Part shown: piece by piece, positions 7,532 through 64,000 of the stretch
How positions within the stretch are numbered: position 1 is the stretch's first letter
Layout of the letters: the number at the start of each line of letters is the position of its first letter
NCBI GenBank assembly: GCA_964016885.1
Contig: OZ024740.1
Span: 143,406,001 to 143,470,000, forward strand
Source: Eledone cirrhosa
Taxonomy: Eukaryota
Reading direction: 5' to 3'
DNA: 64,000 nt
Made by a program: the position numbers and the translations under genes
Notes under the pieces: generated by a model
The model's input: the letters and a program-made list of their open reading frames with translations, nothing else
Database searches by the model: none
What the model was told of the DNA's origin: nothing

Positions 7532-10214
7532 AACATGTCCTTGGCCCCCATGCTTATGGAAACCGCACGGACAACGGGGACAGGTTTGTCCAGTTCTGTG
7601 CCATGAACAATATGAAAATCGGCTCGTCACTATTTGACCACAAGAACACCCACAGGTCACATGGGCTTCGAACGACCACAGGACCAAGACGCAAATAGAC
7701 CACATTGCGATTGGCCCAAGTTGGAGAGCTCCTTGCCTGCAGGACGTCCGAGTCTACCGGGGCGCAGATGTCTGCAGTGACCACTATCTGTCTGTTACCA
7801 AACTTAAAATCAGACTGAGGAAGCAGAAAAAGAGAGCACTCACTACAAGGCGTTTTGACACTACCAAGCTGAAGAACGGTGACACAGAGGCACAGTTCGA
7901 GGCTGCTTTGAGGAACAGATTTGCTGTCCTTGAGGAGTCTGCACCAGGATCGGTCAATTGGTGGGAGGAAATGAAGAAGACCATGGAAGCTGCAGGGGAA
8001 GAAATCCTGGGCTACAGGAAGTCCCTCAGAGAAGCTTGGGTCAGCGACAACACCTGGCAGCTGATTAATGAAAGGAAAACCCTACATCAGCAGAGGCATG
8101 CCACTACCCCAGAGGCCATCAAGGTATATCAGCAGTATGTTGACAAGGACAAGGAGGTGAAACGCAGCGCACAAAAGGACAAACGCATGTGGATTGAGGG
8201 TAAGGCGGGGGAGGCGGAAGCAGCTGCGGCACGCAATGACATGCGCTCTGTGTACCAAATTGCCAAGAAAATCACCGGCAGCTCTAGAGCTAACTCAGGC
8301 CCGGTGAAAGCGAAAGATGGTACGCTGCTTTCCAAGGGTGAAGAAAAGTTAGACAGATGGGCTGAACATTTCAAGGAAGTCCTCAACCGACCGGAGCCAC
8401 GTGTGCCAGCAGACACTAAGGAACCTACTAGTTTGTTGCCTATCAATACTGATGACTTCACCGAGAAGGAAGTCCGCATGGCCATAAAAACCCTTAAGAA
8501 TAACAAGTCACCAGGTATGGATGGCATTTCTGCTGAAATGCTGAAGTCAGGAGGCGAAAGCATGGTCAAGTGGATGGGCCACTTATGTAATCTTGTGTGG
8601 AACACGGGTGAAGTCCCAGCAGATTGGAGAAACGGAGCGGTTGTCTGTATCCCCAAGAAGGGCAACCTTGCCGATTGTGACAACTGGAGGGGAGTGACAC
8701 TTCTCTCCATACCAGGGAAGGTCTATTGTCTGATGATCCTGAACCGCATACGTGGCATGGTAGACCGGGAACTGCGAGAACAACAGGAAGGGTTCCGACC
8801 AAAACGTTCCTGTGCAGAGCAGATCTTTACCTTACGCCGCATCATTGAGAGGTACAACGAATTCCAGAGGCCCCTCGCCGTCAGCTTCATCGATTTCTCC
8901 AAAGCATTCGATAGCTCTCATCGGCCGTCACTCTGGAGCACCATGCATGAGTATGGTCTGCTCCAGAAAGTCATTTCGGCAATCAAACAGATTTACGCAG
9001 ACTCCAAGTGCTGCATACGGACAGAGGATGGTTACAGTGACTGGTTTGAGGTGGTTACTGGTGTGCGTCAGGGTTGCTCGCTCTCTCCAATTCTCTTTGC
9101 CATAGCCATTGACTGGGTACTAAGAAGAGCGTCTAAAGACCAGGGTATATCTTGGGTGGGAGAGCAAAAGTTGTCTGACCTGGACTTTGCGGACGATATT
9201 GTTGGACTTGCAGAGAGCACAGCTGACCTGCAAATCATTATGAACAATATCAATGTCGAAGCAGGAAGCTTAGGTCTCAATATCAGTGCTAAGAAGACCA
9301 AAAGCATGTTATCTGGGACACACCCATCACCAACTGGTGTTTTCATTGAACAGGGGGGGGGGGGGAGATAGTGGACAACTTCACCTACCTAGGAAGCTCC
9401 ATTGACAATGGGGGCGCCATGGACAGTGAATTGCAGTGTAGAATGGGAAAGGCTTCAGCAGCATTTAACCAGCTTGTCAAGATCTGGAAGAGCAGGAAGT
9501 TCACCCTCAAAACAAAGATGAGATTCTACAACAGCAACGTGCTGTCCACACTCTTGTACGGAAGTGAAACATGGCACCTTAAGACCAGCCAAGAGAAGAA
9601 GTTGGACGCATTCGATTCCAGGTGTCTGCAAAAGATCCTGGGGATTAAATGGAGTGACCATGTAACAAACCAGGAAGTCAGGAACCGCACCAACCAGCAG
9701 CTGGTCTCTTCTGCCATCTGCAAGCGACGCCTGGGCTGGTTTGGACACGCTTTGAGACTTCCCCCGGAGAGACTGGCGAACCAAGTACTTAAATGGAACC
9801 CACAGGGAAGCAGACGGAGAGGGCGACCCAAAATGAACTGGCGCCAGACAGTTGAAAGGGACCTGCGAGCGACAAACAGACAATGGCGGGACGCTGTGCA
9901 ACTGGCTGCTGACCGAACGCGGTGGAACACTATGATTGCCTCATGTGTCGCAAGACGCGGGAGCTTCTGAGTCAGAGTCTGAGAGAGAGAGAGAGAGGGG
10001 GATGATTGCGACGCAAACGAGTAAGTAATCCAATTCGTTTAACTCTTTTGGCTATATAAAACTAAATATATACATACGTAAACATGTCTTATGTCCGTAT
10101 TTCTTGCAGTAATGTTGACTTTCGTGCCTCTTGTAACAAGTGAACGGTTTACTTGTGTTGAATCGTATTTTCTTTCGTTTTCTTTTTATATTTTTATATC
10201 CTGGATATATTTTT

Positions 10215-10500
10215 TATCCTGGATGCTGCGATTAGGACGAGAGCCATAGCTTCCGCAGCAGAGCGGAGTAAGACCCTCAAATACTCTGATCTGTCGGTCA
10301 GCTACATTTTTCAGCCTGTGGCTTTCGAGACGTTTGGGGGGAGTCGGACCCCTGACTGCGAGGTTCCTCTCTTCACTGGCGGCTCGCCTAATAGAGGTAA
10401 CTGGCGAATCTCGCGAGGGCGCTTGACTGTTCCAGCGCATTAGCCTCGCCATCATCCAAGGCAACACTGCGAGTGTGCTGACTTGCCTCAAAAAGTCATT
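10215..10500 (+). mobile_element. CRE-clade LINE 3' (restriction-like endonuclease) fragment; duplicate at about 57945-58230
   Basis: + frame reads AAERSKTLKYSDL..FQPVAFETFGG..LFQRISLAIIQGNTASVL. Confidence 0.75.
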
Positions 10501-11590
10501 AGAGAGGTTGCCCAGTACTCCTCGCGACGCTGCTGTCTTTTGCTCTGGTGTTGGCTCGGTTGTTCACCCCTTTCTTTACATTTTCTTTAATATTGCAACA
10601 TTAAAGGAATATATCCTTCTGAAAGAATCGCGAGCAATTTATAATGTTATCTAAGCATTTGTAATGTTATTATACTGTAAATTTAATTATATGCGCTGTT
10701 TATATCATATGTGTTCGTATGTTCACTCCATATGTCTAAACCGTGTATAATAACACAATAATATAAACTCATTGAACAAAAATAAAGGAAAGAAAAGGAA
10801 GGAAAAAAAGGGGGGGGGGGGTTCACCACCAAGTGTGATATTCGGCCAGACCTCACACTATATCAATCATGTAATTTTATTTTGTATATAAATATCATTA
10901 CAAATAATTAAAAAAGAGAAAGAAAGGGGAAAGTAAAAAAGAAAGAAAAAACACACATACATCTAGGACCACATACAACCAAAGGCAGGCGAACGAGGTG
11001 GACACGAAGAAGATTCAACACAATAAAATAAGGGCAACTAGTTATATTTATGGATTATACCTCTATTTCAAAGAATTAGAAGCCACGGGTAGAATTAATT
11101 TTTGAAGCAAGCCAACACTCTATTCGTGCTGCCTTCTAGCTTATTCTAAAGTCTATAGAAAACGTTTGCTGGTGTTGGTTTAAACAGAGCTCCTCGCTCC
11201 AAAAACTGTTTAAACCAAAACAAAAATCGAATAGATATTTCTGACGCTGTTTTATATGAATGCCCTCATTTATTATAATTCTTTAATGTAATTACAATTC
11301 AAGAACATGTTTGATGACCCTGTGATAAACAAGTGAAACTCAGAGTAACAAGACTCCCTATTTAGCCCTAATAAAATTAACATTATAACTCTACTTCGGC
11401 ATTGAGTACTCCTTTCTCTTAGTCGTCAACCACATAGGGATATATATATCCCTATGTCACACGAAGTCGTCTTCCTCACTGATTAACTTTTAAGTTAACA
11501 CTCTAATCGGTTGGGTTCGAATTTTAATAATTCCACAACTATATATCTATGTATAAATAAATAAATAATTATTTATTTATTTATTTATTA

Positions 11591-12265
11591 TCTATGTATA
11601 TATATAAAGTTGTAGTTCCTGTTTGTTTGTTTGTTCACGAACTCCTCATATGGTTTTCGAGATAGACCCCCTTAACCATATATATTCTGAAACTACATTG
11701 CCCAGGGTACTTGGATAAGTACATTTTAATCAACCCTCGTTGAAATTTTTTTCCTTTCGATTTATATGAGATTTAAACCATAGGTAAATGACAGGATAAG
11801 ATGCCTATTCACAAAAGTTTTGAATTGATATTTTGAAAAAAATTATTTACAAGAAAGAAAATAAGAATAAGATTTAATAATGTAATTTTGATTTGATATA
11901 TTACAAAAAATAATTGTTTCTACTTTTGGCACAAAGCCAACAATTATTCCAGTGCATTACTGGTACTTTATTTTATCAACCCCGTAAGGATGAAAGGCAA
12001 AGTTAACCTGGCCGGGATTTGAACTCAGAATGGCAAGGGCCGTAACTCTGCGTCAAAGCATGGCGTCCGACCCTCTACCGATACTGCCAATCCGATATTA
12101 CAAAAAATAATGTTTTCCAATTTTTCATGCATTACATTTTACATTGAGTAATATTGAAATGCAGAGTTTTTCTCCATAAAATTATATCACTGATTTAAAA
12201 TCAATCATCATTTTCTTACAAAAAAAAATGTGTGAAACGCAGCAAGGCGCGGGTAATTCGGCTAG
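11591..12265 (+). mobile_element. Non-autonomous Helitron-like element
   Basis: 5' TC, (GTTT)n near the 5' end, subterminal GC hairpin cgcagcaaggcgcggg, 3' CTAG, and an A^T insertion site. Confidence 0.7.
11911..12094 (-). mobile_element. SINE family 2, nested in the Helitron
   Basis: B-box GAGTTCAAATCC and GCCTTTCATCCTTACGGGG motif on the minus strand; 17-bp TSD ATATTACAAAAAATAAT. Confidence 0.8.
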
Positions 12266-12689
12266 TAAATATATATACTTCGTTTTTGTATTTGTTTTTC
12301 TAGATTTATTATCTGAAAACGTGTGTTGAAATAGATATTGTTATACTTTGGGAGGGTCATTCTGCCAATAAAAACATGCACCTCCTGGTTTTCATTTCAA
12401 TTTATTATATAAACTTTCAGTCAGTTCATTTAATAACTGGATGGTTGTTTAGGTCTTGAATTTCAAAGCTTTTCGGGCACACATTCTGTAACTTCAGTGA
12501 CTACCTTTGTTGTTATTTTGTGTCCCGCCTTTGTTCTGTCCTACAGAATTTTGTTTTTGTGAGCTGTGTACTTGGGCTGTGCATGTATTATATCTAGGTT
12601 TGTGTGTGTGTGTTTTTTTCTTTATACGTTTATTTACTTGTCACTAGTTGGTTGATTGTTCTATCTGTGTGTGTCAGTCGAGATGTCAT

Positions 12690-13400
12690 CCTCTGTTCAG
12701 TTAAGAAGGCCCCTCAGCTTTACCACTTTGCTTGGCAAGATTATCAGGAGCCCTCCTACTTCTCCTTCGGTGACCATTTCATCCTATCTGCCACAGGGGT
12801 CTGACGGTGACACGCTCAGACCAGCTGGGTATTGATGACGTCACCAAGATGGGAGTTGACCTGGATTTGAATGTCTGGTATCTGGATGATGCTTGTTTGG
12901 GGTGTTCTCCAGATAAGATTCATGGAACCGCAAAGACGATTGAGGAACTGAGTTGCAGGGGCTTTCATGTCAACAGTTCCAAATGCGAGCTCTGGTCCCT
13001 CAACCACCCAGCTTCACATCAACAGACTGTTGACCTGTTTACAGAGTCCTTCCCCTCTATCACGGTTCCTCCCTCATCAGCGTGGTGCTCTCTTGGAGCC
13101 CTAATTACTGACCAAACCTTCGAGTCCATCTTTCACTCTAAGTTGGCTAATCTTGAGCAAATTTTAAAAAATCTCGAAGCTTCACCAAAGTTTTTTTATA
13201 CTTATGAATTACATCAATTCCTAAATTGTTGTATTTCATCAGAATTAGCCCCTCTTACAAAATTTCGTCAACTCTCCAATACTTTGATGACTTAATATTC
13301 AATGAGCTCAAGGGCTTGGTCAATGTCTCTCTCCAGAATCCCACAACCAGGCTCCCTTGCCTAAACAGTTTGGAGGTCTGAGAATTGCTATCACTTGATC
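12690..13400 (+). mobile_element. CRE-clade LINE RT fragment; duplicate at about 60405-61110
   Basis: ILSATGV..., LNVWYLDDACL and VNSSKCEL motifs; degenerate. Confidence 0.7.
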
Positions 13401-13999
13401 CTTTTCTTACTCATGTCTGCGATGAACATGACTTATATTCCTTTCTGCATATACTGTAATGAAACAAAAAACGTTTTTCAGCTATGGCTAGCCACAATGT
13501 TCATGCAACACACATGAAAGTTGTTTAGATGAAGCAATGCCTGTGTTTGAAGCTTTTTTAAGAAAGACCTTGCACTGGGCCAATCCCACTCTGAACAACT
13601 GTGATAGGTATCCAGAAACAAGAACAGGTCAACATCATTGGCTGCCATTGAGTCACAGGTTTTACATCAGTTTTCCTTCTAGAATGATGTCCTAACAAGG
13701 CCTAAGGGTCTCACACTTCCGGTGGGCTAAACACACACTCAGGCACCAAACCGAGTACTCAAAGTACCTGCATATATATTATATTATGTATATATAAGAG
13801 AGTGTTGTAGTTTGGTTGAAGCATTGTCTGTAGTGTTATTTGAAGGCTATGACAATGCAAAATGAATGATAAATTTTTAAAATGAAAGCAAAGAAGATTT
13901 TTGTGTTACCTGGTAGTTTATTTATCAGTCTTTATATTTCAGGATTAAAAAAACAAACTAGTTCAGAGCTGTACATTTTGTTTGTTATAGAATCGCCAT

Positions 14000-15010
14000 C
14001 TTACTTTCTTTGTTTGGAAACGATGGTTTATTTATAACTGCCAGAAATGGTGGAAGATTGGCATTATATGTGGACTACTATATGTGTGTACATTTTTATG
14101 TCAAATATAGGTTTCCTCGTAGTGAAGGGCTGGAGAGAGCTAACTGTGTATCTAGTCCCTCCTTGCAGATCACCATGGTTATTTTTTTGCTGAAGTGTAG
14201 TAACTCCAGAAAGCAGGTGTTGGAGGAGGTCTTACATTTCCAGCATTTTGGACCCCGAAGACGACTTTTGATGAATGTTGGATATTCATTGGTCTCTAGG
14301 AAGTGTGCGGTGTAGGGGACCTGGTCCTCTGCCTTGCTGCATTTTTTTCCAGGAATGTGTGAATTTATTCCTTATGTATCAGGTTTTAGCACCAATGAGC
14401 AAACAGGTCTCTGCAATTGGTTTTTCTGTAGAAGTTATGGATGTCACCTTCTGTTATCCTGAGTTGGTAGTCAAGTAGAGACAGGGATCCAGGGCAGTTA
14501 TGGTTTTCTACGCTGAACTACATGTTATCATCCTTGTTTATGAACATGGTAGATATTCCATTGGCCTCTTCATCAGAGAATGTGAGTAAGAGTACGTCAT
14601 CTATGTATCTAGTGAAGAAGGTACAGGAGCGACAGGTGTTGAACGTTTGATGTTCTAGCTGGTCATGTAGGTGATGGCTAATAGGCCTGAAAGATTGGAT
14701 CCCATGGGTAGACTTGTTTGTTTGTAGGTGTGGTGATGGAAGGTGAAGTATGTGTTTTCTACAATACTGATAGGAGGTGGTGAGGCCAAAGTTGTATAGG
14801 TCGGAAGAAATGATGCAATCAGTCACAAGGTTGACCACTGGGTGAGTGGGTACTGATGTGTAGGAGACAACATTGAGGCTAAAGGTGTATCTGTTAAGTT
14901 TAAGTTGACCTGTATTTGTTAGGAAGTTGTCTTTGCCTACAGATATCAGCCTAGACTCTGTTAATGTGGTCTTCAATTTGGGTTGATGTTGTCTATTATT
15001 TCCGAAATAA
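14000..15010 (-). mobile_element. Decayed Penelope-like RT fragment; duplicate at about 61715-62725
   Basis: FSLNVVSYTSVP, FFTRYIDDVLL and SLSLLD motifs. Confidence 0.7.
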
Positions 15011-16061
15011 TCCATTGTTGCTGTGGTATTCAAATACCAGCTTGTTGTAGATGTCACAAGTGACAATGCAAAATTCTTTCCCTTAAATCACAAATTAAGG
15101 TACAAAGCAACGTATATATACAAAAATTATGTGTCAGTGTATAAACAGAAACTAAGTACATTTCATAATTTCTTTGTTTGTTTTTTGTTTTTTTTATTTT
15201 CAACATATAGATACAATAGAAAATAACTTTCTTCCTGTTTCCACCATTCATCTATGGTTCTTGTGATGTTTTGTGTTCTTCAGATTCACTTGTACAAGAT
15301 ATGTAATTCCTGTCATTTTCTCTGCTGAAAGATGGGGCAAACAATGCATGCAAAGACAAGGTGAACTCTCTAACTGTTAGAATATTTTATATGAATAGAC
15401 TACACAAAGTTGTGACAAAGTTCTTTGACATGTCTACTACTGCTGGTCCTGATTGTGGCAAAGCAGAAATAATATATTAAAAATTTCAAGATACCATGGG
15501 TCAACTGTGTTGGCTTGGGGGTAGACAATTGCTGCATAAACATGGGACAACCTAATTTAGTCATGTCTAGAATTCACAATATAAACAGTGCTTTAATTTT
15601 TATTAAGATACCCTTGTCATCTCATACATGACATTGCTTCCTTTCAGTCAAATTTAAAGATGTATGTGGTTTTTGACTTTTGCATTGATCTATTTTACTT
15701 TTTGGATAAGAGTACAAAATGAAAGGAGGAGTTAGAAGAGTTTTGTTGCTTTTACGATAGAGAATATAGGGGAATTTTAAAGAATGTCAACAAGGTGGTT
15801 AAGCCTAGAAATGGCAATTAATTGGGTTCTACTTTTTGATGCACTGCAGTTTTTTTCATATCCTGTGATAAGCATCTCAACTTTATATGTTTGAAAGCAC
15901 CCCTTCTAAACTCTCATGTTAAAAATATATTTACTATTCTATCAGGTTGTTCTGCCATCTTTCACCAATTTTAATAAAGACCTTTCCATTCACCTGCTAG
16001 ACTGAATTACATTCTTTTTTGGTAGAAACTTTTAAGTAAATTTATAAAGTCGAAAGCTATC

Positions 16062-16870
16062 TATCTATATATATAAAACTGAGGATGTGTGTGTGTATGT
16101 GCATACCCACATAACTTCCACAGTTTGCAACCGACTTTCTTCAAATTTGGAACAAACATGCATTATGTTCCCAGGAGTGTTTTGGACTCATAAAATTTCA
16201 AGTTTTTGTCTAATGTGGCCCCTAGATAAATATTAGTTGGTTGCATGAAAACTACACACATACATATACATCTAAAGAGAGAGAGAGAGAGTGAGATAGG
16301 CCGTTATACAGAGAGAGATAAAGATATTCAGATAGAGAGAGAGAATGGCGACGAACGCTGGTTTACACATGCACACACATAAAGAGAGAGATATCTGTGC
16401 GTTCTTGATTGTTCTTCATTCTGTAGAGAAAGATAGAGAGGGTATGAGAAAAAAGAGAGAGAGGGGTTCAGAAAGAAAGAAAGATTGTAGGGGGTTGGGG
16501 AGGGAAGAAAATGATAGCAGCGTTCAATAACTTTAACTTTTATTTATTTATTTATTCTTTAGAAACTAAAAAAAAAGAATCAATCTGTGGACACAGAAGT
16601 AAATATTTTTTTAAATGTTACAACCGAAGGAAACCAGGAAGATAATACTTTCGTTCGTGAAGATGTTCCCTGGCAATAAATGGGAAAAAAGCGAGGATAA
16701 TTATGTCGTTGTGTGGGGTGATGAGAACAATGTCTTGAAAAGACAAAAACACGTTTATGGTTTAAATGGAGACGTTAGACTTATATTCTATTTAGAATAA
16801 CTGGATGATTCTCGGCTCCGGAGTTTAAGAATAATGTAAATAAAGTTGTTAAACGGAAATGACAGAGGCT
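16062..16870 (+). mobile_element. Helitron/HINE-like non-autonomous element
   Basis: TCTATATATATAAA start, (TG)n tract and ccgactttcttcaaattt motif. Related pieces at about 3770-3930 and 39115-39245. Confidence 0.5.
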
Positions 16871-18755: not shown

Positions 18756-18802
18756 TTTGCCGTTGAATGATGATTTTTTGAGTTGTACAGGTTTTACTTG
18801 TA

Positions 18803-22663: not shown

Positions 22664-22703
22664 ATGAAGATTCTACCACTACTCTATTTGCTGGCAATGA
22701 CTT
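22664..22703 (+). CDS. Coding exon 1 (signal peptide N-part, MKILPLLYLLAMT)
   Basis: Acceptor ttttttcag ends at 22660, ATG at 22664, donor GTAAGT at 22704, phase 1. Confidence 0.85.
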
Positions 22704-25700
22704 GTAAGTGATTTATCACCATCACCATCAACATCATCATCACCGTTTTACATCTGCTTTTCTATGCTTGCATGGGTTGGAAGTGTCTTTTCTAGCACAA
22801 CCTCCTTCTACTCATTGTGGTACTTCGTCATCTCTGGTACCTTCAGCAATTTCAGATGAGCACTCAAAACCTCTGCCCTGATCTGCCTTGGACGCTTAAT
22901 GCAGCTTTCTTCCACTGGCATTTGTGCATCCAAACGGAAGACGGGTAAATTCGTATATTCGGCCACAGGCTTCGAATGCAGTCAACTTAAAGTCGGAAGA
23001 TTTGATGGGTATTTGGTGATAAGCTGCCTTTAGATCTATTTTCGAGAAATACGTGTTTTGAAATTTTGTTGAGTAGGTCTTCGATTATGGCATTAGTGGT
23101 GTGTAACGATTTATAGTGCCTGAGTAGTCTATGACAAGCCTTTTTTTGTTTTCTTGATCTATTACGAAACACTGCGCTCTCCATGGGCTTCTGCTCTGTT
23201 GAATTATTCCAGCTTTAAGCATTCTGTCGATTTCCGTTTTAATGAATTGCTGATCTTTATTGTATTTTCGAGGAGGTATAGATAATGGTTTTAATTTTGT
23301 AGTATCGATTCCAGGCATTAAATCATATTCTTCACAATTCAGAGTTTGCATTGACATACATATCGTGACTGCTCTCATGTCCCCTGCATATTTTATTGTT
23401 AAAGACTTATGCCTTTTAAGTATATCAAGAGCCATAACTACTGGAGCAAAGAGTTTGTCAACCACCATTAGATCGATGTGGTATTCTCGGCCCTCCCATT
23501 CTAATGTTGTTTCAAATGTACCTCGTATTATGAGTTTACTGTTGTCGGCTAAAATTACACTCTTATTCTTAGTTTTCTTGAATTTACTTTGCCATTTCGA
23601 CAAGTGGTTCATGTCAATGAAAGACTTGTCTGAGCCTGTGTCAAGTAAACCTTCTGTTTTATGTGAATTGACATAAATTGTTAAAAAGTTTGTATTATGA
23701 TTCACGGAAGCAAGTTTATAGCAGGCAGCAAGATTACTGCCATCATTGGAGCCCTCGTTATTATTCAAGACTGCTGCGTGTTTTATCTTCTTTAGTACCT
23801 TCTTATTTTTAACAAAACATACTGTTGCCCAGTGGCCTTTCTTGTGGCAGAAATTGCAAGTTGAATTTTTTGCAGGGCACTCTGATTTTTGGTGATATGT
23901 ACTACCACACCAGAAACATTTTAATGAAGAAGCAGCGAATACGGGTTGTGACGGCGGTTGTATTGTTGTTGTTGACAGATTTTGTGCGTCTTCTATTGCC
24001 AGTTCTAATGTGAGAGCGGTTTGGAATGTTTTATCTAGATTTTTGAAACTCCTACCTGTATCTTGAATACATCACTAAACTCATTACCTGCTCTCATTTT
24101 ACTGACAGCACCTTTGTACATAGCTTGCATGGCTCTCATAACCCACTCATCTACACCCAGCTTCCTTAAGGACCACCAGATAACAGATCAATGTATAATT
24201 CTCTCTACAAGTATTAAATGTGTTATTATTCTAACAAAAGTAGAAATCCAGTTTTTCTTATCTGTAATTCAGCAACAAGCCTTTTAAGACCATTTTCCTT
24301 GCTATATTAAGGGTTATCCCTTCATGGCATCCTTTTTGAGGCAATATTTTACAGCCACATTCCCTTCCTGTTGAAACCTCTTTTAGTCACCTCTTACAAC
24401 ACACATGGTTATGTAAAATCTGAAAATATATTTTCATCTTTTATAGATATATCAATGGTCAATGCAAAGCTTAACATTGAAGCAAATGGTAATTGTATTA
24501 TAAAAATCTTTGATTTTAAAACCAGATGCTATCTTTTCTACTCTGCTTTCTGCTTCTTTCTCATAGTTAATAATCTTTAGTCACTAAATATATTTCCTCC
24601 TTTGAATGGGCAAAATTTCATCTTCAGAGCCCAAAAGACAATAATGATTATAAATATGATTGTGATTATAATATTGATTGTAGTAATACAAACTGTTATC
24701 TTAAAATATCAATTTGACAAAACTGTAGAAAGTAACTAAAGACTATTTAGTAAAAACAAATGTATATATATATATATATCAGCAGCAGCAGCAGCACTTA
24801 ACATCTATTTTCCCTACTTTTGAGGATTGAATAGGTCGTTATAGAATAAGTCAGTACTTAATTGAAGCCAATAGCCTCTCAACAAGTCAGGTATCACATC
24901 TCACTTACATACATTCCTGAAATGTACATGTTGTAACAGATGCATTTTATCATGGCACCAGCTCTAGAGGGGTTTTTGTACCCTTGATAAAACTGAAGAG
25001 GCTTCACAACTCTTTGTTGGCCCAGTTTTCTATGACTGAATACCCTTCCTATCACCAACCACCTTATAGAATGTACTGGCTGGTTTTCTCATGTTGCCAA
25101 CACTAGAGGGGTTTTCATGCCCTTAACACAACTGAAGCGTCCTCTTGACCCTTTTTTGGTGTGGTTTTTCCAGCTGGACGCCTCTCCTATCACTAACCAC
25201 CTTACAAAGTGTACTGACTGCATCTTTTGTGGCACCAGCACTAGGGCAGTAGTCACGGTGTAGTCCTACAGATGGAAGCTCTTCCTAACACTAACCACTT
25301 TGATGGGGGAGGTAAGAAGGATGATGTATATATGTGCACACACATACATATTACATATATGAATACATGTTCAGAATTCTGTACATTTTTGGAGACACTT
25401 GTGATCTGTACATAAGTTGGTATAACATGTGAGTAATGTAGCATGTCATCAGGGTCATGGTCCTTGAAAGACTTTCAGTTGTCTCCAATGGTAACATGAC
25501 ACAAGATGATTAAAACTTAAGGATCTGCTGCAATATCTTCCGTCTTCTTCGTCATTATGTGAGTTAATTTAACACCTGCTTTATCACTATTGAAGATTGA
25601 AGACAATGAAACGCATTTAGTCTGAATCCTCACCCTCAACTTTGCAATCTTTAAAGACCCTACTAGGAGGACAAACCTTCTGATGACATCACTGTCAAGG

Positions 25701-28317
25701 TCTGATGAACATGCAAGCTTCTCCACCACATCATAGTAGATCTCTCATTCAATTTCTCATTAGTTCTGATAATCTTTATTATATATTTTTACTTTTAATT
25801 TCCATTATAAATATATCAAAGCTGATAAAAACTTAAACTTAAATCAATAAATTTAATATATCTATTTCAGGAACAATTTGGTTAGGGGAAGAAATAACTC
25901 TTAAAACTCCAATCAGTGCTAATACTTCGGCTATTACATGGAAAAGTGAAGGAAAGAATATTGCATGTGACAAAAGTTGCGGTGGGAATGAAGACTACAA
26001 AATTACTAGGGGAAATGGTTCATCTACCCTTTGGATAAGAAATGTTTCTTGGCAATATCGTACATGGACAGTTATTGAAAATGATTTGGAAACTGATGAC
26101 TTCACTATGGATATAAATGGTAAGGAAATAATTTCTGATGATAATAATCATGGAGCAAGTATTTTATGGTGTTAAATCAAAGTCAACATTTGTATTTTAA
26201 TGATTTATTTTCTATCTTGAATTGTAATATTTCTGTAATATATAATAATGTGGGATAGTTAACTAAATGAACTGGTTAGATTAACCCCTATGTCCTTGTT
26301 CTAATATCTTGACCACATTTCCAATAATTAGGTGTCTATATTACCACTTAATTGTTATATGGTTGACAATCTTTCGGTATCTTCTAATATCTTAATCACA
26401 TTCCCAGTGGTCACTTATCTAATGTTATATAACCCCTATAAAATAAGCTAATTTGTCAGACTGCCATATTTGTGTTTAAAATGTTTGTTTTTTGAAATTC
26501 AGATGTTATGTTGATTTTATTTATTTTTTTTTTTTATATAGAATTTTAAATAATAACATTCTTATTCCTTTTCTATCTCTAAGAATGATTCCACATTCCT
26601 TAGTACAGATGTATTGGAAGGTTTTATCTCTGAATGGTTTAGAAATCATATAAACACAAATTTAGCAGTATGTCTTATTTTATATAGTTTTCACAGAATT
26701 TTGAATCTCATAACTTGTTTGGTTTTAATATTGCAGTGAACTTTGTATATTTTCTGTTAGCCATGTGATGTTATAGACTATTTCCAACTCTCCTTATTTT
26801 CTGATAACTTTTTCTTGGAGTTGAAAACTGTGAAAACAACCACACATTAAGAGAACCCGCTTAACATTTGCAGAGATAGGAGAAATCAATCTAAATATAC
26901 CTACAGACTAACAAAGAACAGTCTGTCTGAGGAACAATTTGTCCTCTATATATGATTATATACACTTACAGACTGATGAGGATTCTTTGTTACTAAAATA
27001 TACATAAAACAACTTTATACTGATATTATTCTTGTTTTTTTTCTTTCCTTTTTTCAATTCTTGAAATGACAAAGAAATTGGTCTTATTTTTCATTGATCA
27101 GAACCTTTTTCCAAATTCTCACTGCAAACAAATCTATTGTAACCAAATCTTGACAATACAGTGTGGGAATAAAGAATCTGTAAATTAAAAAAGTAGCTTG
27201 TGGTAGCAATAATAATAAAGGCTTACCTTGCTTCCAGAATTCACTTAGAGGAATTTTTAATAGCAGCTCTTTCATGCTAAACAGCTTAAAACACCACACT
27301 TTTCTGTGAGTCTCACACTCACATACACACGCAACCATACTTTGAAAAAAATTCTATGTTGAAAGAGGATTGGAGTTCTGTTCCTTCACTAACCTGGCAC
27401 TATTTCCCTCTCATACTTCTGGCTCTTAACCCACAATACTACATACATTTTAAAAGACGGTATCATAGAAGCAACTAATTCATTATCGCTGGCAGGGCCT
27501 ATGAGAGGGGGTCCAACTAGTACTTTGTTCCGGGGGCCCAAGACCTAAGAAGGCCCCACAGCAACCATGCAACATCCATTTTGAGAATTTGCCTGCTTCA
27601 GAGCAAAATTTCTCCTGGAAGCCCTGATCGCAGGCACAGTTTTTTCTTTGGCAATTTCAGTATTGAAAAGTCTTCTAGTAGATGTTTCTCAAATGAGATG
27701 GAGGTGGGTGCAAATATTCTAAAATGCTGCTATTCGCACCAGAAATCAACATTCTCTGTTAACTGTTCTCTCTCATTTTCTGCATCATCATCATTGAACA
27801 GCCATTCTCCCTGGTAGCAAGTGTTGGACAGGTTATTACAGAATGAGTCAGTGCTCAAGTAGAGCTACTGACCTCTCAGATGGGTCAGAGGCCCACATCG
27901 TGCTTACATATATTTCCATACTCTATAGAGTGCACTTTATTGTGGCGCCAACATTAGAAAGGTTGTCATGACTTTGACACTGCTGAAGAAGCCTCTCAAC
28001 CCTTTATTTGACCAGTTTTCTATGACTGAATACCTTTCCTATCACCAACCACCTTTCAAAATGTACTGAGTTTGTTTAATTAAGTCACCAACACTAGAGA
28101 GGTTGTACCTTTGACGTAACGGAAGAATTCTTTTGACTCTTTTTAACACGGTTTCTATGACAGGATTCTCTTCCTATTGCCAACCAAGTCACAGGTTGTA
28201 CTGGGCGCATTTTTTGTAGCACCAACATTAAGGAGGTTATTGGTAATTGAGTTAACTGAAGATCCCTCTCTACTCTATGGGAGGGGATGTTAAAAAGGAT
28301 GGTAAGTATAATGCATG

Positions 28318-28350
<33 letters not shown>

Positions 28351-40812: not shown

Positions 40813-42721
40813 ATTACACATGTTTAAATTTTAGAATATAGGCCTTGTTTTGAGCAAAGTATGAGATTTCTAAAAAAAAACATCCCTAAACTAATAAAAA
40901 ATGAAAATCTGCAGTTCAAACACAGCATCAAAGTTTCAAATCCTTTTGAGAGATGTCTGGGAGAAATAGAGACAGATTTACCACAGTATTTAAGTAGTTT
41001 ATTCTCACCTCCACTCTAGAAGAGAGATTTTTCAATGTTCTTTATACGTTCATAGCAGACAGTTCTCCATTTTCCAGTCAGCAGCTAGGGCTTCAAACGA
41101 AGTAAGATATGTTCCCTGATTTAAAATTGTACTTCAGTTTGTCTTTTTATCTGAATAATAGTCTGCTTACATTACTTGCACCATTATGAAGTTGACTGTA
41201 TAACAGTACCTTGGGTGTGCTGTCGTCAATCATACATAGAACATGACCAGCCCATATATATATATGTGTATAATCATTGATATATATGTATACTGAACCT
41301 TAAGGACATCAAAGCACATGTATATAGAGTGAGTCTGCAGTGCTGAGACCGGGGAGTCCACTAATCATGAGAGTGTATATATATATATTTATATTTGAAA
41401 AAGGAGTAAGGTTCTATACAAAACAGGTTATAGAGAAAAAGTAGGATTGGAAACAGCACGGGAAATAACGGGAAATAAATTTAAAGAATCTGGGTTTTTT
41501 TTACTTCTTTGATCCGTCAATTTGAAAAATGTACTGTCAATGTACTGTCTTAGCTATAAAGATGTCATAATGTGTATAAATAATAGAATTATGTCCCTCT
41601 TTAAGAAAACAAGAATAGTATAAAAGTAAAAACCCAATTTATATAATAAATATGATTTTCAAAAGAAACAAATCAATAAAAATCAGTCAATGAAAAATAA
41701 CAGAAAGCACACTTAATGACAAACTACAACATAAAATGCTGGTATTGCCCTCTAAAAATGTTTGAGGCAAGCCAAGACAGCATTACTGAGAGTGATAGTG
41801 AGGCTAAGATGCTGGAATAGCCAAGTGTCCTTATGAACATCATCTGATAATTAACTGTCAACGGCCCAGCTTCCCTTAACATTCTCAAATGTTACAAGCT
41901 AAAAATGTCATTCACTGATAAATCACAGTATTTCAGTAATTCATTCTGTTTATGAAAAGATATAACAACATTAGAAGATATTTCCTTGTGACTTTTATGA
42001 ACAGTATAATACTTTTCAAATTGAAATGGTTGATATGTTATATTTGAAAACCCAGAGTCGACAGTTACATGTGATATAAAGAAAATTAAAGATTTAATGA
42101 ACATAAGTAATTTGAAATTGCTAATCAATATTAATTCTATTCTCCACCACAATCTGAAGTCAGTGATTAATCAGATTGTAATAATACATGTCTATGTATT
42201 TAGTTTTGTTTTAGATCTTTTATCTAAAAATATTTTAATATATCTTTTGTAGTAACTTGTGTTTGGGTGACACTTCATCTGTAGTAAGACTATCCAAGCA
42301 GTTAAATATTTAATAACTTTTGAGAGAGAAACACTTTAGAAATGTTTACCAGTATTATTAGGCTTCCATTAGCAGAAACTAACTTTTCTATATAATCATA
42401 CATAATAGTTTAGAGAATGATCTAAAATAAGCTTATTGATTTATCTCATTGTTTAATCACTAATTTCAAATTTTGTAGCTTTGGTTAGATGTTCTACATA
42501 TTAAATGATAATATAATAATTTAAGAGTAAACCAGATTTATTAAAATTACAGGTTACTAAAATTTATTCTAAAAGAGTGATGCAGTAAAAATTAATGATT
42601 CAGAGCCTCACAGCTGAGATGACAAAAGGTTGAGGAAATGTGGTGATATCATTTAAGACAGATATGTCTAACTAATACTATTGATGTAGTCATTCTTCTG
42701 TAGTAATACAGACATGTGTAG

Positions 42722-43258
<537 letters not shown>

Positions 43259-45329: not shown

Positions 45330-45810
45330 GCCTTCTCTATGTATGCATAAATCTAATTATGTGATTTATATGAGAGAATGATTTACCACAGATGTCAGTG
45401 ATGTGGCTTCTCTCCTGTATGAATGCATTTGTGAGTAACAAGAATGATCCCCCACAGATATCAACAATATGGTTCCTCACCTGTATGAATACGCCTACGA
45501 TTAGTTAAGTGACCAGTTTCAGAGAATGATTCCTTACAGATATCACAGTGATATGTATTTCCTCCTGTATGAATACATTTGTGTTATTATTTATTTTAAA
45601 GAATGATTTACCACAGATATCACTGATATAATTTCTCATTTGTATGAATATGTTTGTGTTTAAACAGGTTACTTTTTCAGAGACGTATGTTTTATAAATA
45701 TAACATTGGCATGATGATTTTCCTATCTCTATCGGTATGTCTTCTGAAAAGAAACAATCCTTTAAGTTTCTCATTGAATTAATTTTCATATAATTTCCTT
45801 TTCCTACCAC
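45330..45810 (-). pseudogene. Second, more decayed C2H2 zinc-finger pseudogene
   Basis: DICGKSF and TGEKP remnants with many indels. The upstream sequence is similar to that of the first copy. Confidence 0.75.
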
Positions 45811-56960: not shown

Positions 56961-56979
56961 ATTAACCCCCTACACACCA

Positions 56980-57455
56980 TTGCCACTGGGGCATAGATTT
57001 CTTTATTTGCCCCTTTTTTGTTTGTTTGTTTTTTTGCGATTTATTAGCCTTTTGGGGTCACACACACCCCCGTAGAAAGCGTGCGACCTTTCTGCCAGGG
57101 AGTACAGAGAGAGGGGGGTACTCTCTTCTTCTCTTACCTGTACAAGCCGATATAGAGAGATGGCCCACTTACACGGGCCATTATTGCTACTTTCACTCGA
57201 AAAAGGCTCTCAGTCCCAGCTAATTCCATGAAAGATGGGTGAAAGTAGCAATAATGGCCCGTGTAAGTGGGCCATCTCTCTATATCGGCTTGTACAGGTA
57301 AGAGAAGAAGAGAGTACCCCCCTCTCTCTGTACTCCCTGGCAGAAAGGTCGCACACTTTCTACGGGGGTGTGTGTGACCCCAAAAGGCTAATAAATCGCA
57401 AAAAAACAAACAAACAAAAAAGGGGCAAATAAAGAAATCTATGCCCCAGTGGCAA
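56980..57455. repeat. Near-perfect palindrome: 217-bp arms (56980-57196 / 57239-57455), 42-bp spacer
   Basis: The arms are reverse complements with one visible mismatch (gaaagcgtg vs gaaagtgtg). Confidence 0.93.
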
Positions 57456-57787
57456 ATAAATCGCAAAAAAAAACCCAATAAATAAATCTATATTTCTTTT
57501 AACGGCTAAAAAAAGGGGAATGTAAATTTGTTGGAATAGCCTCATACATTGAAGTAAGCAGCAACTGCAGCAAGTAAGCGGCATTTAGACAGCTAAAATT
57601 GGATATCGCCATATTTTCATTTTATACAATTGTGAAGAAATATTATACAAAAAGTGAAAATAGGACAGTTAGGCGGAAGTAGTATGAAAGTGTGGGGGAG
57701 AGATAGACAAATGATTGCGACGCAAACGAGTAAGTAATCCAATTCTCTATAAAACTAAATATATATGTTTCTTTATTTATTTATTTA

Positions 57788-60700
57788 TAAACTAAATATA
57801 TACATACGTAAACATGTCTTATGTCCGTATTTCTTGCAGTAATGTTGACTTTCGTGCCTCTTGTAACAAGTGAACGGTTTACTTGTGTTGAATCGTATTT
57901 TCTTTCGTTTTCTTTTTATATTTTTATATCCTGGATATATTTTTTATCCTGGATGCTGCGATTAGGACGAGAGCCATAGCTTCCGCAGCAGAGCGGAGTA
58001 AGACCCTCAAATACTCTGATCTGTCGGTCAGCTACATTTTTCAGCCTGTGGCTTTCGAGACGTTTGGGGGGAGTCGGACCCCTGACTGCGAGGTTCCTCT
58101 CTTCACTGGCGGCTCGCCTAATAGAGGTAACTGGCGAATCTCGCGAGGGCGCTTGACTGTTCCAGCGCATTATCCTCGCCATCATCCAAGGCAACACTGC
58201 GAGTGTGCTGACTTGCCTCAAAAAGTCATTAGAGAGGTTGCCCAGTACTCCTCGCGACGCTGCTGTCTTTTGCTCTGGTGTTGGCTCGGTTGTTCACCCC
58301 TTTCTTTACATTTTCTTTAATATTGCAACATTAAAGGAATATATCCTTCTGAAAGAATCGCGAGCAATTTATAATGTTATCTAAGCATTTGTAATGTTAT
58401 TATACTGTAAATTTAATTATATGCGCTGTTTATATCATATGTGTTCGTATGTTCACTCCATATGTCTAAACCGTGTATAATAACACAATAATATAAACTC
58501 ATTGAACAAAAATAAAGGAAGGAAAAAAAGGGGGGGGGGTTCACCACCAAGTGTGATATTCGGCCAGACCTCACACTATATCAATCATGTAATTTTATTT
58601 TGTATATAAATATCATTACAAATAATTAAAAAAGAGAAAGAAAGGGGAAAGTAAAAAAGAAAGAAAAAACACACATACATCTAGGACCACATACAACCAA
58701 AGGCAGGCGAACGAGGTGGACACGAAGAAGATTCAACACAATAAAATAAGGGCAACTAGTTATATTTATGGATTATACCTCTATTTCAAAGAATTAGAAG
58801 CCACGGGTAGAATTAATTTTTGAAGCAAGCCAACACTCTATTCGTGCTGCCTTCTAGCTTATTCTAAAGTCTATAGAAAACGTTTGCTGGTGTTGGTTTA
58901 AACAGAGCTCCTCGCTCCAAAAACTGTTTAAACCAAAACAAAAATCGAATAGATATTTCTGACGCTGTTTTATATGAATGCCCTCATTTATTATAATTCT
59001 TTAATGTAATTACAATTCAAGAACATGTTTGATGACCCTGTGATAAACAAGTGAAACTCAGAGTAACAAGACTCCCTATTTAGCCCTAATAAAATTAACA
59101 TTAAAACTCTACTTCGGTATTGAGTACTCCTTTCTCTTAGTCGTCAACCACATAGGGATATATATATCCCTATGTCACACGAAGTCGTCTTCCTCACTGA
59201 TTAACTTTTAAGTTAACACTCTAATCGGTTGGGTTCGAATTTTAATAATTCCACAACTATATATCTATGTATAAATAAATAAATAATTATTTATTTATTT
59301 ATTTATTATCTATGTATATATATAAAGTTGTAGTTCCTGTTTGTTTGTTCACGAACTCCTCATATGGTTTTCGAGATAGACCCCCTTAACCATATATATT
59401 CTGAAACTACATTGCCCAGGGTACTTGGATAAGTACATTTTAATCAACCCTCGTTGAAATTTTTTTCCTTTCGATTTATATGAGATTTAAACCATAGGTA
59501 AATGACAGGATAAGATGCCTATTCACAAAAGTTTTGAATTGATATTTTGAAAAAAATTATTTACAAGAAAGAAAATAAGAATAAGATTTAATAATGTAAT
59601 TTTGATTTGATATATTACAAAAAATAATTGTTTCTACTTTTGGCACAAAGCCAACAATTATTCCAGTGCATTACTGGTACTTTATTTTATCAACCCCGTA
59701 AGGATGAAAGGCAAAGTTAACCTGGCCGGGATTTGAACTCAGAATGGCAAGGGCCGTAATTCTGCGTCAAAGCATGGCGTCCGACCCTCTACCGATACTG
59801 CCAATCCGATATTACAAAAAATAATGTTTTCCAATTTTTCATGCATTACATTTTACATTGAGTAATATTGAAATGCAGAGTTTTTCTCCATAAAATGATA
59901 TCACTGATTTAAAATCAATCATCATTTTCTTACAAAAAAAAATGTGTGAAACGCAGCAAGGCGCGGGTAATTCGGCTAGTAAATATATATACTTCGTTTT
60001 TGTATTTGTTTTTCTAGATTTATTATCTGAAAACGTGTGTTGAAATAGATATTGTTATACTTTGGGAGGGTCATTCTGCCAATAAAAACATGCACCTCCT
60101 GGTTTTCATTTCAATTTATTATATAAACTTTCAGTCAGTTCATTTAATAACTGGATGGTTGTTTAGGTCTTGAATTTCAAAGCTTTTCCGGCACACATTC
60201 TGTAACTTCAGTGACTACCTTTGTTGTTATTTTGTGTCCCGCCTTTGTTCTGTCCTACAGAATTTTGTTTTTGTGAGCTGTGTACTTGGGCTGTGCATGT
60301 ATTATATCTAGGTTTGTGTGTGTGTGTTTTTTTCTTTATACGTTTATTTACTTGTCACTAGTTGGTTGCTTGTTCTATCTGTGTGTGTCAGTCGAGATGT
60401 CATCCTCTGTTCAGTTAAGAAGGCCCCTCAGCTTTACCACTTTGCTTGGCAAGCTTATCAGGAGCCCTCCTACTTCTCCTTCGGTGACCATTTCATCCTA
60501 TCTGCCACAGGGGTCTGACGGTGACACGCTCAGACCAGCTGGGTATTGATGACGTCACCAAGATGGGAGTTGACCTGGATTTGAATGTCTGGTATCTGGA
60601 TGATGCTTGTTTGGGGTGTTCTCCAGATAAGATTCATGGAACCGCAAAGACGATTGAGGAACTGAGTTGCAGGGGCTTTCATGTCAACAGTTCCAAATGC

Positions 60701-63700
60701 GAGCTCTGGTCCCTCAACCACCCAGCTTCACATCAACAGACTGTTGACCTGTTTACAGAGTCCTTCCCCTCTATCACGGTTCCTCCCTCATCAGCGTGGT
60801 GCTCTCTTGGAGCCCTAATTACTGACCAAACCTTCGAGTCCATCTTTCACTCTAAGTTGGCTAATCTTGAGCAAATTTTAAAAAATCTCGAAGCTTCACC
60901 AAAGTTTTTTTATACTTATGAATTACATCAATTCCTAAATTGTTGTATTTCATCAGAATTAGCCCCTCTTACAAAATTTCGTCAACTCTCCAATACTTTG
61001 ATGACTTAATATTCAATGAGCTCAAGGGCTTGGTCAATGTCTCTCTCCAGAATCCCACAACCAGGCTCCCTTGCCTAAACAGTTTGGAGGTCTGAGAATT
61101 GCTATCACTTGATCCTTTTCTTACTCATGTCTGCGATGAACATGACTTATATTCCTTTCTGCATATACTGTAATGAAACAAAAAACGTTTTTCAGCTATG
61201 GCTAGCCACAATGTTCATGCAACACACATGAAAGTTGTTTAGATGAAGCAATGCCTGTGCTTGAAGCTTTTTTAAGAAAGACCTTGCACTGGGCCAATCC
61301 CACTCTGAACAACTGTGATAGGTATCCAGAAACAAGAACAGGTCAACATCATTGGCTGCCATTGAGTCACAGGTTTTACATCAGTTTTCCTTCTAGAATG
61401 ATGTCCTAACAAGGCCTAAGGGTCTCACACTCCCGGTGGGCTAAACACACACTCAGGCACCAAACCGAGTACTCAAAGTACCTGCATATATATTATATTA
61501 TGTATATATAAGAGAGTGTTGTAGTTTGGTTGAAGCATTGTCTGTAGTGTTATTTGAAGGCTATGACAATGCAAAATGAATGATAAATTTTTAAAATGAA
61601 AGCAAAGAAGATTTTTGTGTTACCTGGTAGTTTATTTATCAGTCTTTATATTTCAGGATTAAAAAAACAAACTAGTTCAGAGCTGTACATTTTGTTTGTT
61701 ATAGAATCGCCATCTTACTTTCTTTGTTTGGAAACGATGGTTTATTTATAACTGCCAGAAATGGTGGAAGATTGGCATTATATGTGGACTACTATATGTG
61801 TGTACATTTTTATGTCAAATATAGGTTTCCTCGTAGTGAAGGGCTGGAGAGAGCTAACTGTGTATCTAGTCCCTCCTTGCAGATCACCATGGTTATTTTT
61901 TTGCTGAAGTGTAGTAACTCCAGAAAGCAGGTGTTGGAGGAGGTCTTACATTTCCAGCATTTTGGACCCCGAAGACGACTTTTGATGAATGTTGGATATT
62001 CATTGGTCTCTAGGAAGTGTGCGGTGTAGGAGACCTGGTCCTCTGCCTTGCTGCATTTTTTTCCAGGAATGTGTGAATTTATTCTTTATGTATCAGGTTT
62101 TAGCACCAATGAGCAAACAGGTCTCTGCAATTGGTTTTTCTGTAGAAGTTATGGATGTCACCTTCTGTTATCCTGAGTTGGTAGTCAAGTAGAGACAGGG
62201 ATCCAGGGCAGTTATGGTTTTCTACGCTGAACTACATGTTATCATCCTTGTTTATGAACATGGTAGATATTCCATTGGCCTCTTCATCAGAGAATGTGAG
62301 TAAGAGTACGTCATCTATGTATCTAGTGAAGAAGGTACAGGAGCGACAGGTGTTGAACGTTTGATGTTCTAGCTGGTCATGTAGGTGATGGCTAATAGGC
62401 CTGAAAGATTGGATCCCATGGGTAGACTTGTTGTTTGTTTGTAGGTGTGGTGATGAAAGGTGAAGTATGTGTTTTCTACAATACTGATAGGAGGTGGTGA
62501 GGCCAAAGTTGTATAGGTCGGAAGAAATGATGCAATCAATCACAAGGTTGACCACTGGGTGAGTGGGTACTGATGTGTAGGAGACAACATTGAGGCTAAA
62601 GGTGTATCTGTTAAGTTTAAGTTGACCTGTATTTGTTAGGAAGTTGTCTTTGCCTACAGATATCAGCCTAGACTCTGTTAATGTGGTCTTCAATTTGGGT
62701 TGATGTTGTCTATTATTTCCGAAATAATCCATTGTTGCTGTGGTATTCAAATACCAGCTTGTTGTAGATGTCACAAGTGACAATGCAAAATTCTTTCCCT
62801 TAATACACAAATTAAGGTACAAAGCAACGTATATATACAAAAATTATGTGTCAGTGTATAAACAGAAACTAAGTACATTTCATAATTTCTTTGTTTGTTT
62901 TTTGTTTTTTTTATTTTCAATATATAGATACAATAGAAAATAACTTTTTTCCTGTTTCCACCATTCATCTATGGTTCTTGTGATGTTTTGTGTTCTTCAG
63001 ATTCACTTGTACAAGATATGTAATTCCTGTCATTTTCTCTGCTGAAAGATGGGGCAAACAATGCATGCAAAGACAAGGTGAACTCTCTAACTGTTAGAAT
63101 ATTTTATATGAATAGACTACACAAAGTTGTGACAAAGTTCTTTGACATGTCTACTACTGCTGGTCCTGATTGTGGCAAAGCAGAAATAATATATTAAAAA
63201 TTTCAAGATACCATGGGTCAACTGTGTTGGCTTGGGGGTAGACAATTGCTGCATAAACATGGGACAACCTAATTTAGTCATGTCTAGAATTCACAATATA
63301 AACAGTGCTTGATTTTTATTAAGATACCCTTGTCATCTCATACATGACATTGCTTCCTTTCAGTCGAATTTAAAGATGTATGTGGTTTTTGACTTTTGCA
63401 TTGATCTATTTTACTTTTTGGATAAGAGTACAAAATGAAAGGAGGAGTTAGAAGAGTTTTGTTGCTTTTACGATAGAGAATATAGGGGAATTTTAAAGAA
63501 TGTCAACAAGGTGGTTAAGCCTAGAAATGGCAATTAATTGGGTTCTACTTTTTGATGCACTGCAGTTTTTTTCATATCCTGTGATAAGCATCTCAACTTT
63601 ATATGTTTGAAAGCACCCCTTCTAAACTCTCATGTTAAAAATATATTTACTATTCTATCAGGTTGTTCTGCCATCTTTCACCAATTTTAATAAAGACCTT

Positions 63701-64000
63701 TCCATTCACCTGCTAGACTGAATTACATTCTTTTTTGGTAGAAACTTTTAAATAAATTTATAAAGTCGAAAGCTATCTATCTATATATATAAAACTGAGG
63801 ATGTGTGTGTGTATGTGCATACCCACATAACTTCCACAGTTTGCAACCGACTTTCTTCAAATTTGGAACAAACATGCATTATGTTCCCAGGAGTGTTTTG
63901 GACTCATAAATTTCAAGTTTTTGTCTAATGTGGCCCCTAGATAAATATTAGTTGGTTGCATGAAAACTACACACATACATATACATCTAAAGAGAGAGAG
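57788..64000 (+). repeat. Segmental duplication, copy B (runs off the window end)
   Basis: Offset about 47.71-47.73 kb from copy A, with scattered SNPs and small indels. It contains the same CRE, Helitron, SINE and Penelope relics. Confidence 0.97.

Follow-up and report, generated by a model that had tools for sequence, protein, structure and literature searches.

Does a near-identical direct repeat in the genome of the octopod Eledone cirrhosa record a recent tandem duplication and, if so, has this duplication multiplied the immunoglobulin (Ig)-like gene that lies between the two copies of the repeat? The stretch in question comprises 64,000 nucleotides of contig OZ024740.1 (assembly GCA_964016885.1, positions 143,406,001 to 143,470,000 of the forward strand) and is referred to below, at its full length, as the window, with positions counted from its first letter. 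The duplication is likely real and likely includes the gene, in which case it would be a new instance of a common type of event.

The direct repeat and its left junction

Self-BLAST of the window aligned positions 9989-16285 with 57698-64000 in the same orientation (6,321 columns, 98.8% identity, E=0). The near-identical core begins at 10058/57788, the first ~70 bp of the BLAST match being more diverged. From 10059/57789 onwards, the core spans 6,230 columns, of which 6,188 match, 21 are mismatched and 21 contain gaps, the gaps representing 6 indel events that all lie within a microsatellite or homopolymer context. The substitution divergence of the core amounts to 0.34% (95% confidence interval 0.21-0.52), with 99.7% identity over aligned bases. 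The substitutions (13 transitions and 8 transversions) are evenly distributed, and their transition/transversion pattern looks like that of biological substitutions rather than of consensus errors. In the whole global alignment there are 31 substitutions and 10 indels, 10 and 4 of which, respectively, are packed into the first 70 bases. A chance origin of the repeat is excluded. The copies are offset by 47,730 at the core start and by 47,714-47,718 farther along. Both the recurrence of 10058-16285 at 57788-64000 and the period of about 47.7 kb, which an initial sequence-only reading of this DNA had reported, are thus borne out. The repeat is at least 6.2 kb long, position 16285 being the point where copy B meets the window edge and no true boundary.

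With regard to its content, the repeated segment is a patchwork of decayed mobile-element pieces and unassigned AT-rich DNA, non-coding as far as tested. Broken reverse transcriptase (RT)/endonuclease-like frames are found in copy A at ~10160-10600, 12720-13700 and 13950-15090, which we take to be CRE-like and Penelope-like; a Pfam scan of these frames returned nothing significant, and the segment contains no intact transposase or RT frame. A short dispersed repeat (11881-12093 in copy A) has further copies elsewhere in the window, and 425 of the 6,228 bases of the segment match other window repeats. Since several unrelated decayed elements have all their junctions in common between the two copies, the segment appears to have been copied as a block rather than to derive from two insertions of a simple transposon. 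As a direct repeat of more than 1 kb at more than 90% identity (6,230 columns, 21 mismatches) it has the dimensions of a segmental duplication, and its mosaic of unrelated elements, common junctions and homologous left flanks sets it apart from copies of a single transposon.

To the left of the core lies an older, more diverged homology, which is split on the A side by a long interspersed nuclear element (LINE) that is missing from the B side (Table 1) and that is presumably RTE-like. Copy B has only 25 bases (57686-57710) between the two halves of the homology, corresponding to the empty LINE site. The right half is exact over 35 bp (57711-57745 in B, 10002-10036 in A). Adjacent to it, 10037-10057 and 57746-57787 are unequal in length and sequence, the latter being a rearranged 42-bp stretch that repeats AAACTAAATATATA. 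The copy B junction contains a 21-nt filler, for which a templated origin was considered and rejected, as the best local match (16/21) was equalled in 19 of 72 control windows. On the far side, the homology ends beyond 4860/57621, with a few extra bases by eye. The divergence changes at 10058/57788, with 3 differences in 65 positions left of the core versus 21 in 6,207 within it (Fisher p=0.0018), and this abrupt step from ~5% to 0.3% at one point suggests that a crossover or a template switch took place within a pair of older, diverged repeats.

A near-perfect palindrome (Table 1) lies to the left of the junction homology, its end 165 bp away, and the junction also holds a 65-bp imperfect repeat and a 14-bp repeat. 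The 16-mers common to 1-10057 and 50000-57787 (72 matches) were, apart from the junction homology itself, just simple repeats and one satellite-like word. The sequence left of copy A is unlike the end of the unit beyond ~170 bp, which argues against a third, upstream unit and makes copy A the first one.

The LINE on the A side contains a nested insertion (5552-7531). The direct repeats of this insertion measure ~375 bp and differ by 3 mismatches, its target duplication is 5 bp long (AACAT), and its interior of ~1.2 kb is apparently non-coding. It resembles a young non-autonomous element of the long terminal repeat (LTR) type, which we assume to be TRIM-like.

Whole-unit duplication and its competitors

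The explanation towards which we lean, with slightly more belief than doubt, is that the unit 10058-57787 was recently duplicated head to tail, so that a second copy of the Ig-like gene would lie at ~70.4-82.0 kb. That the duplication is real, whether it comprises the whole unit or a shorter tract, is held with fairly good confidence; the weights given to these and the following readings are judgements and not computed values. In such a duplication, a short repeat would already have existed in two diverged copies, at ~4.9/10.0 kb and at 57.7 kb, and an unequal crossover, or a replication template switch aided by the adjoining palindrome, would have joined them. The junction would then be a hybrid, whose left part came from the downstream repeat (diverged, no LINE) and whose right part came from the upstream repeat (near-identical). 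Short repeats occasionally serve as substrates for non-allelic homologous recombination (NAHR), and palindromes may stimulate template switching, according to the sections of PMC2583991 used here. Tandem segmental duplications formed by NAHR or by fork stalling and template switching/microhomology-mediated break-induced replication (FoSTeS/MMBIR), as described in the same sections, resemble the present case in the long direct repeat of high identity, the junction in short older homology and the palindrome at the breakpoint. They differ in that the left junction alone is visible here and the whole-unit structure is putative. Of the earlier claim that a recent tandem duplication may multiply the Ig-like gene, the repeat and its period stand, and the reach to the gene is a prediction that goes beyond them.

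Several points weigh against the whole-unit duplication. The comparison covers 6.2 of 47.7 kb (13%), and the second gene copy is outside the visible sequence, its exon 1 being predicted at ~70,379, past the window end at 64000. The right part of the partner short repeat is likewise out of view, and nhmmer found no third copy of the left junction homology in the window, which leaves the dispersed-repeat status of this homology putative. Moreover, exact homology to the left of the core extends over just 35 bp, below the usual need of efficient NAHR. Nor can the LINE be proved to predate the duplication, as its nested direct repeats differ at 3 of 376 positions versus 21 of 6,207 in the core (p=0.15), all 3 differences falling within the first 23 bases. 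Furthermore, a near-perfect fold-back at a junction can arise from a chimeric read. The divergence of 0.34% lies within the published heterozygosity of octopods and thus cannot separate a paralog from an allele, the values being 0.96% in A. fangsiao, 1.10% in O. sinensis, 0.95% in H. maculosa and 0.08% in O. bimaculoides (in the part of PMC9795677 used here) and 1.22% in O. vulgaris (10.1101/2023.05.16.540928, likewise in part). Finally, the passages of Ko et al. 2022 (PMC9516828) that concern false duplicates describe some that were joined gap-free by wrongly filled sequence.

The strongest competitor, which we nonetheless regard as unlikely, is an assembly artefact, named as an uncollapsed haplotype in the sequence-only reading as well, in which copy B would be the other allele (LINE-empty, with a different upstream flank), joined without a gap, perhaps via a fold-back read at 56980-57455. 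If a second gene exists downstream, it would in that case be an allele and not a paralog. The divergence of the core falls inside the octopod range of heterozygosity (0.08-1.22%), the presence or absence of a LINE at the boundary is a typical allelic difference, and the palindrome is as young as the repeat (1/217). In O. sinensis, 1.74% of the genome was flagged as hemizygous, according to part of 10.1101/2020.09.15.298695. Long-read assemblies are described, in the passages of PMC9516828 on this matter, as keeping 61-92% of their remaining false duplications on the same scaffold. The heterotype false duplications of the same passages are alike in sharing scaffold and orientation, in their allele-level divergence and in a LINE difference at the boundary, and differ in that the present case has no assembly gap and a low divergence. 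The marks of false duplication listed there are a read depth reduced to half, discordant pairs, single-copy k-mers and a gap that separates the copies; most false duplications were gap-separated, and they arose where heterozygosity was 1.5-1.8 times higher than the average (PMC9516828, same passages). Conversely, no N is present anywhere in the window, which consists of A, C, G and T only, though a filled gap would be invisible. The divergence is also below the ~1% of four of the five octopods, whereas false duplications favour above-average heterozygosity, and the two alleles would have to lack homology for at least 4.8 kb to the left of 4860.

Decidedly less probable is a shorter but real duplication, in which a break near 57.7 kb would have been repaired by copying a tract from 10058 that ended before or inside the gene. 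Only non-coding DNA would then have been multiplied, possibly with upstream regulatory sequence. Nothing in the window fixes the right end of the repeat, and a complex junction such as this one, with its palindrome and its 65-bp and 14-bp repeats, is found in template-switch events (PMC2583991, in the sections used). The region also harbours other small young direct duplications, at 4045-4223/4465-4643 (2 mismatches in 179) and at 18804-19150/19497-19848 (~350 bp, with 1 mismatch and 5 gap columns). Against this, direct repeats that lie tens of kb from each other on the same chromosome are mostly whole-unit tandems, and the divergence histogram along the core displays no decay of identity toward the window edge. 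The two small duplications, taken on their own, point to frequent local duplication or to local mis-assembly. Lastly, a large composite mobile element, for example a Helitron with captured fragments, might have inserted twice independently. This would agree with a segment made largely of mobile-element debris, but it is exceedingly improbable given the homologous flanks behind both copies, which independent insertions would not be expected to share, and the lack of an intact transposase or RT frame.

If the whole-unit duplication does include the gene, two near-identical copies would permit a direct view of the earliest divergence between paralogs. A young 48-kb tandem duplication is in itself ordinary in a repeat-rich octopod genome, and a haplotype artefact would be relevant to assembly curation only. 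The better lead appears to be the unnamed octopod Ig family to which the gene belongs, since Pfam barely detects its Ig folds, its domain number and anchor vary, and it is multi-copy in three octopus genomes.

The Ig-like gene and its octopus relatives

The gene model comprises six exons (Table 1) with AG/GT at all internal sites, which yield an open frame of 254 residues. The splice acceptor 3 bp upstream of the ATG implies a 5' non-coding exon; a search for it via the N-terminal extensions of six relatives gave only noise. The deduced protein is hydrophobic at both ends and has ten cysteines and six N-glycosylation motifs. Its C-terminal tail continues for 2-3 residues after the hydrophobic stretch (3 after the best 15-mer) and resembles, by inspection, a glycosylphosphatidylinositol (GPI) signal, with N228-S229-A230 presumably fitting the omega-site rules for GPI attachment. 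The product is therefore a predicted GPI-anchored surface protein with two Ig domains and, judging from its modelled fold and its topology, it likely acts in cell-cell or ligand recognition or adhesion. Within the window the gene is single, as tblastn with the Ig-like protein gave a single match and no paralogous exon or relic. The domain-1 family profile likewise had one match among 2,037 six-frame window pieces (E=5.9e-33, the next being 0.034).

The first domain is only weakly similar to Pfam I-set (exon 3, E=0.0068, below the cut-off). Its cysteines are C60 and C64 (CxxxC) alone, and the canonical V-set disulfide between strands B and F is lacking; the strand-C tryptophan W51 is invariant in all 18 alignment rows (column W23). 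AlphaFold modelled this domain as a beta-sandwich with a predicted local distance difference test (pLDDT) score of 93. VIA-align placed V-set domains on top (Z 10.6, root-mean-square deviation 1.9 A over 81 residues). Foldseek listed only Ig domains, the best at E=1.8e-3 and none at or below 0.001. Domain 1 is thus predicted to adopt the Ig beta-sandwich fold. The fold of the second domain was modelled in a relative only, the O. vulgaris protein P0160, whose model has two Ig domains (pLDDT 86) and matches butyrophilin best (E=1.5e-9).

A HMMER search with exon 3 returned 29 matches, 20 of which belong to one family by inspection; the other nine, namely eight long, weakly matching proteins and the two-repeat Ig-like protein P0141, were set aside. 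A profile built from eight family proteins and three window exons then retrieved 31 proteins, all from Octopus (sinensis, vulgaris and bimaculoides) and all annotated as 'uncharacterized' or 'hypothetical'. The taxonomic range of the family may extend beyond Octopus. In the nearest Atlas clusters, the commonest phylum among the 5-8 members with a record is Mollusca. Other routes were less productive: a search for homologs of exon 3 among longer proteins, based on words, passed none of 12 candidates, the family profile had one weak match among PDB sequences (myotilin, E=0.0064), Pfam gave nothing above the curated cut-off for nine relatives, and Rfam gave no matches.

The spliced window protein aligns with P0124 (E=6.5e-34, at best 36.5% identity over 178 residues) and P0135 (2e-28), over residues 1-248 and with the cysteines aligned. 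This full-length alignment with two-domain members provides independent confirmation of the gene model. The identity to nine two-domain members is 28-38%. In a tree of 17 of the 42 family proteins and the window protein, the latter forms a group with the two-domain members (98/98); its branch is long (1.89), and no ortholog is supported. On this sequence evidence, the window protein is a divergent member of an uncharacterised subfamily with two Ig domains (V+C). The 254-residue gene model and the Ig fold proposed by the sequence-only reading are both upheld, and its GPI-type tail agrees with what inspection finds.

The family members have either one to five V-like domains or one V-like and one six-cysteine domain. 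CxxxC is present in 70 of 73 V-like domains, which come from 40 of the 42 family proteins, the remaining two having no domain-1 match; the nine V+C relatives also have two cysteines per V-like domain. With regard to the C-terminus, some of the proteins have a transmembrane tail followed by a short cytoplasmic part, and the others terminate in a hydrophobic stretch, as does the window protein. The closest relatives, P0124 and P0158, have a long C-terminus with several hydrophobic stretches and not a single tail, which suggests that the anchor type switched within the V+C subfamily. At one O. sinensis locus, LOC115225115 (P0121, P0150 and P0151), the isoforms carry 4-5 similar V domains and their numbers reach X16, which suggests exon duplication and alternative splicing as a second source of diversity.

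Compared with Octopus LOC106868859, LOC106876057/058 and LOC115211991 (V+C) and LOC115225109/115/116/458 (1-5 V), the window protein is alike in the full-length alignment, the CxxxC motif, the six-cysteine second domain and the hydrophobic C-terminus. It differs in lacking the PNMKRP and YECD motifs of the family and in its long branch. The vertebrate butyrophilin/B7 and CD2/CD48/CD58 proteins share the V+C fold (the P0160 model with butyrophilin, window domain 1 with V-set domains), whereas sequence identity is 9-18% and does not establish orthology, and a shared fold is no proof of function. The first domains of the CD2 family also lack the canonical disulfide. No paper was found in the open-access literature for 12 LOC identifiers, the search excluding supplementary tables, the usual place for such identifiers. 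A topic search of the same literature gave no paper describing the family by its title or the start of its abstract. The family is provisionally regarded as undescribed.

The octopus relatives of the gene appear to have multiplied by local duplication. LOC115225109, 115, 116 and 458 of O. sinensis share one contig of 21,331,139 bp, six O. vulgaris clusters share one of 34,562,309 bp, and LOC106876057 and 058 of O. bimaculoides share one of 127,476,059 bp, the clustering being judged from shared contigs and neighbouring LOC numbers, without coordinates. LOC106876057 and 058 each pair with a relative in another species, which points to an old duplication. The window also contains two relics of C2H2 zinc-finger arrays, as had been proposed, each with a disabling lesion (Table 1). 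They are 69% identical to each other with flanks included, and the best matches of the C2H2 relic include Octopus proteins at up to 76% identity. Four contigs with family members also carry C2H2 matches to the window relic; this is weak evidence of association, as C2H2 genes abound and the matches are placed by contig only. In the predicted protein P0137, a C2H2 array is fused to the V exon of the family, which suggests close adjacency of a C2H2 gene and a family gene in some genome.

Coleoid genomes contain multi-megabase tandem arrays of protocadherins, C2H2 fingers, crystallins and unknown genes (PMC9068888, PMC9795677 and PMC12513265, in the parts used here). The arrays of protocadherins, C2H2 fingers and S-crystallins (PMC9068888 and PMC9795677, same parts) are alike in octopod context, in growth by whole-gene duplication, which is putative in the present case, and in the C2H2 relics beside another expanded family. 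They differ in that the window holds one gene copy, which encodes an Ig-domain protein. The word 'immunoglobulin' is absent from the main texts of PMC9068888, PMC9795677 and PMC12513265. The likeness to coleoid gene-family expansions is consistent with the octopod context and with the family clustering in other octopuses. Of the expanding GPI-Ig cluster proposed for this locus, the clustering is supported in the other octopuses, and what is found here is a single copy of the gene together with a non-coding segment that is present twice.

The known coleoid expansions are those of protocadherins, C2H2 fingers, G-protein-coupled receptors and crystallins. An expanded family of Ig receptors would offer a candidate for immune or cell recognition in octopuses, and the duplication, if true, would be one birth event within a locally multiplying family. 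The fullest version of this idea, which we consider quite doubtful, is that the window captures a new gene copy at its origin, in an octopod family of Ig receptors that is undescribed and evolves fast, is bred by local duplication in zinc-finger-rich regions and acts as a self/non-self or cell-identity code. Such a family would be characterised by a CxxxC loop replacing the canonical disulfide, by 1-5 V or V+C domains, by GPI or transmembrane anchors and by many splice isoforms, and would be an octopus counterpart of the CD2/B7-type or Dpr/DIP-type receptors.

Feature coordinates and other elements of the window

Table 1. Positions of the features discussed in the text, in window coordinates.
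Feature	Position	Strand	Basis or remarks
LINE (endonuclease-RT), A side only, 5.06 kb	4926..9985	+	RVT_1 E=9.4e-31, DUF6451 (Pfam); 1 in-frame stop, 2 frameshifts
Left half of old homology, A side	4860..4925	+	3 mismatches, 1 gap in 66 columns vs 57621-57685 (94%)
Copy A, right end open	10058..16285	+	self-BLAST, alignment; 6.4 kb upstream of first coding exon of Ig-like gene
Coding exon 1 (ATG)	22664..22703	+	splice acceptor 3 bp upstream
Coding exon 2, last part of signal peptide-like stretch	24447..24488	+	phase 1-1
Coding exon 3, V-like Ig domain	25871..26119	+	phase 1-1; CxxxC and no other cysteine
Coding exon 4, first half of second Ig domain	28388..28485	+	phase 1-0
Coding exon 5, second half of second Ig domain	33519..33684	+	phase 0-1
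Coding exon 6, Ser/Thr-rich stalk, hydrophobic C-terminal tail, stop	34139..34308	+	
Relic 1, C2H2 zinc-finger array	42677..43255	-	in-frame stop
Relic 2, C2H2 zinc-finger array	45340..45673	-	frameshifted
Near-perfect palindrome	56980..57455	.	arms 56980-57196 and 57239-57455, 216/217 complementary, 42-bp spacer
Copy B left junction	57621..57787	+	older diverged homology to 4860-4925 and 10002-10036
Copy B, truncated by window edge	57788..64000	+	self-BLAST, alignment

Several other elements were observed in the window. Intron 1 of the Ig-like gene contains, on the minus strand (23085-24071), a 328-residue frame with a zinc knuckle and a retroviral-type aspartyl protease, both below the cut-off, which appears to be a gag-pol fragment of an LTR retrotransposon. 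Just downstream of the stop codon of the gene, at 34865-35592, there is an older inverted repeat (87%) with two LINE-like 3' ends. Two LINE frames are associated with PHD fingers, located at the N-terminus of a broken element in the first (17690-18790, E=0.0027) and C-terminal to the RT in the second (48500-49630, E=2.2e-6), the latter belonging to a family with several window copies. Three short elements (11590-12267, 16065-16230 and 39000-39115) start with TCTAT and end with CTAG by eye and are presumably Helitron-like. A satellite array at 51700-53560 has a period of ~50 bp, with ~30 copies at ~70% identity, and a 17-base word of its unit recurs at 6384-6400, inside the nested insertion of the A-side LINE.

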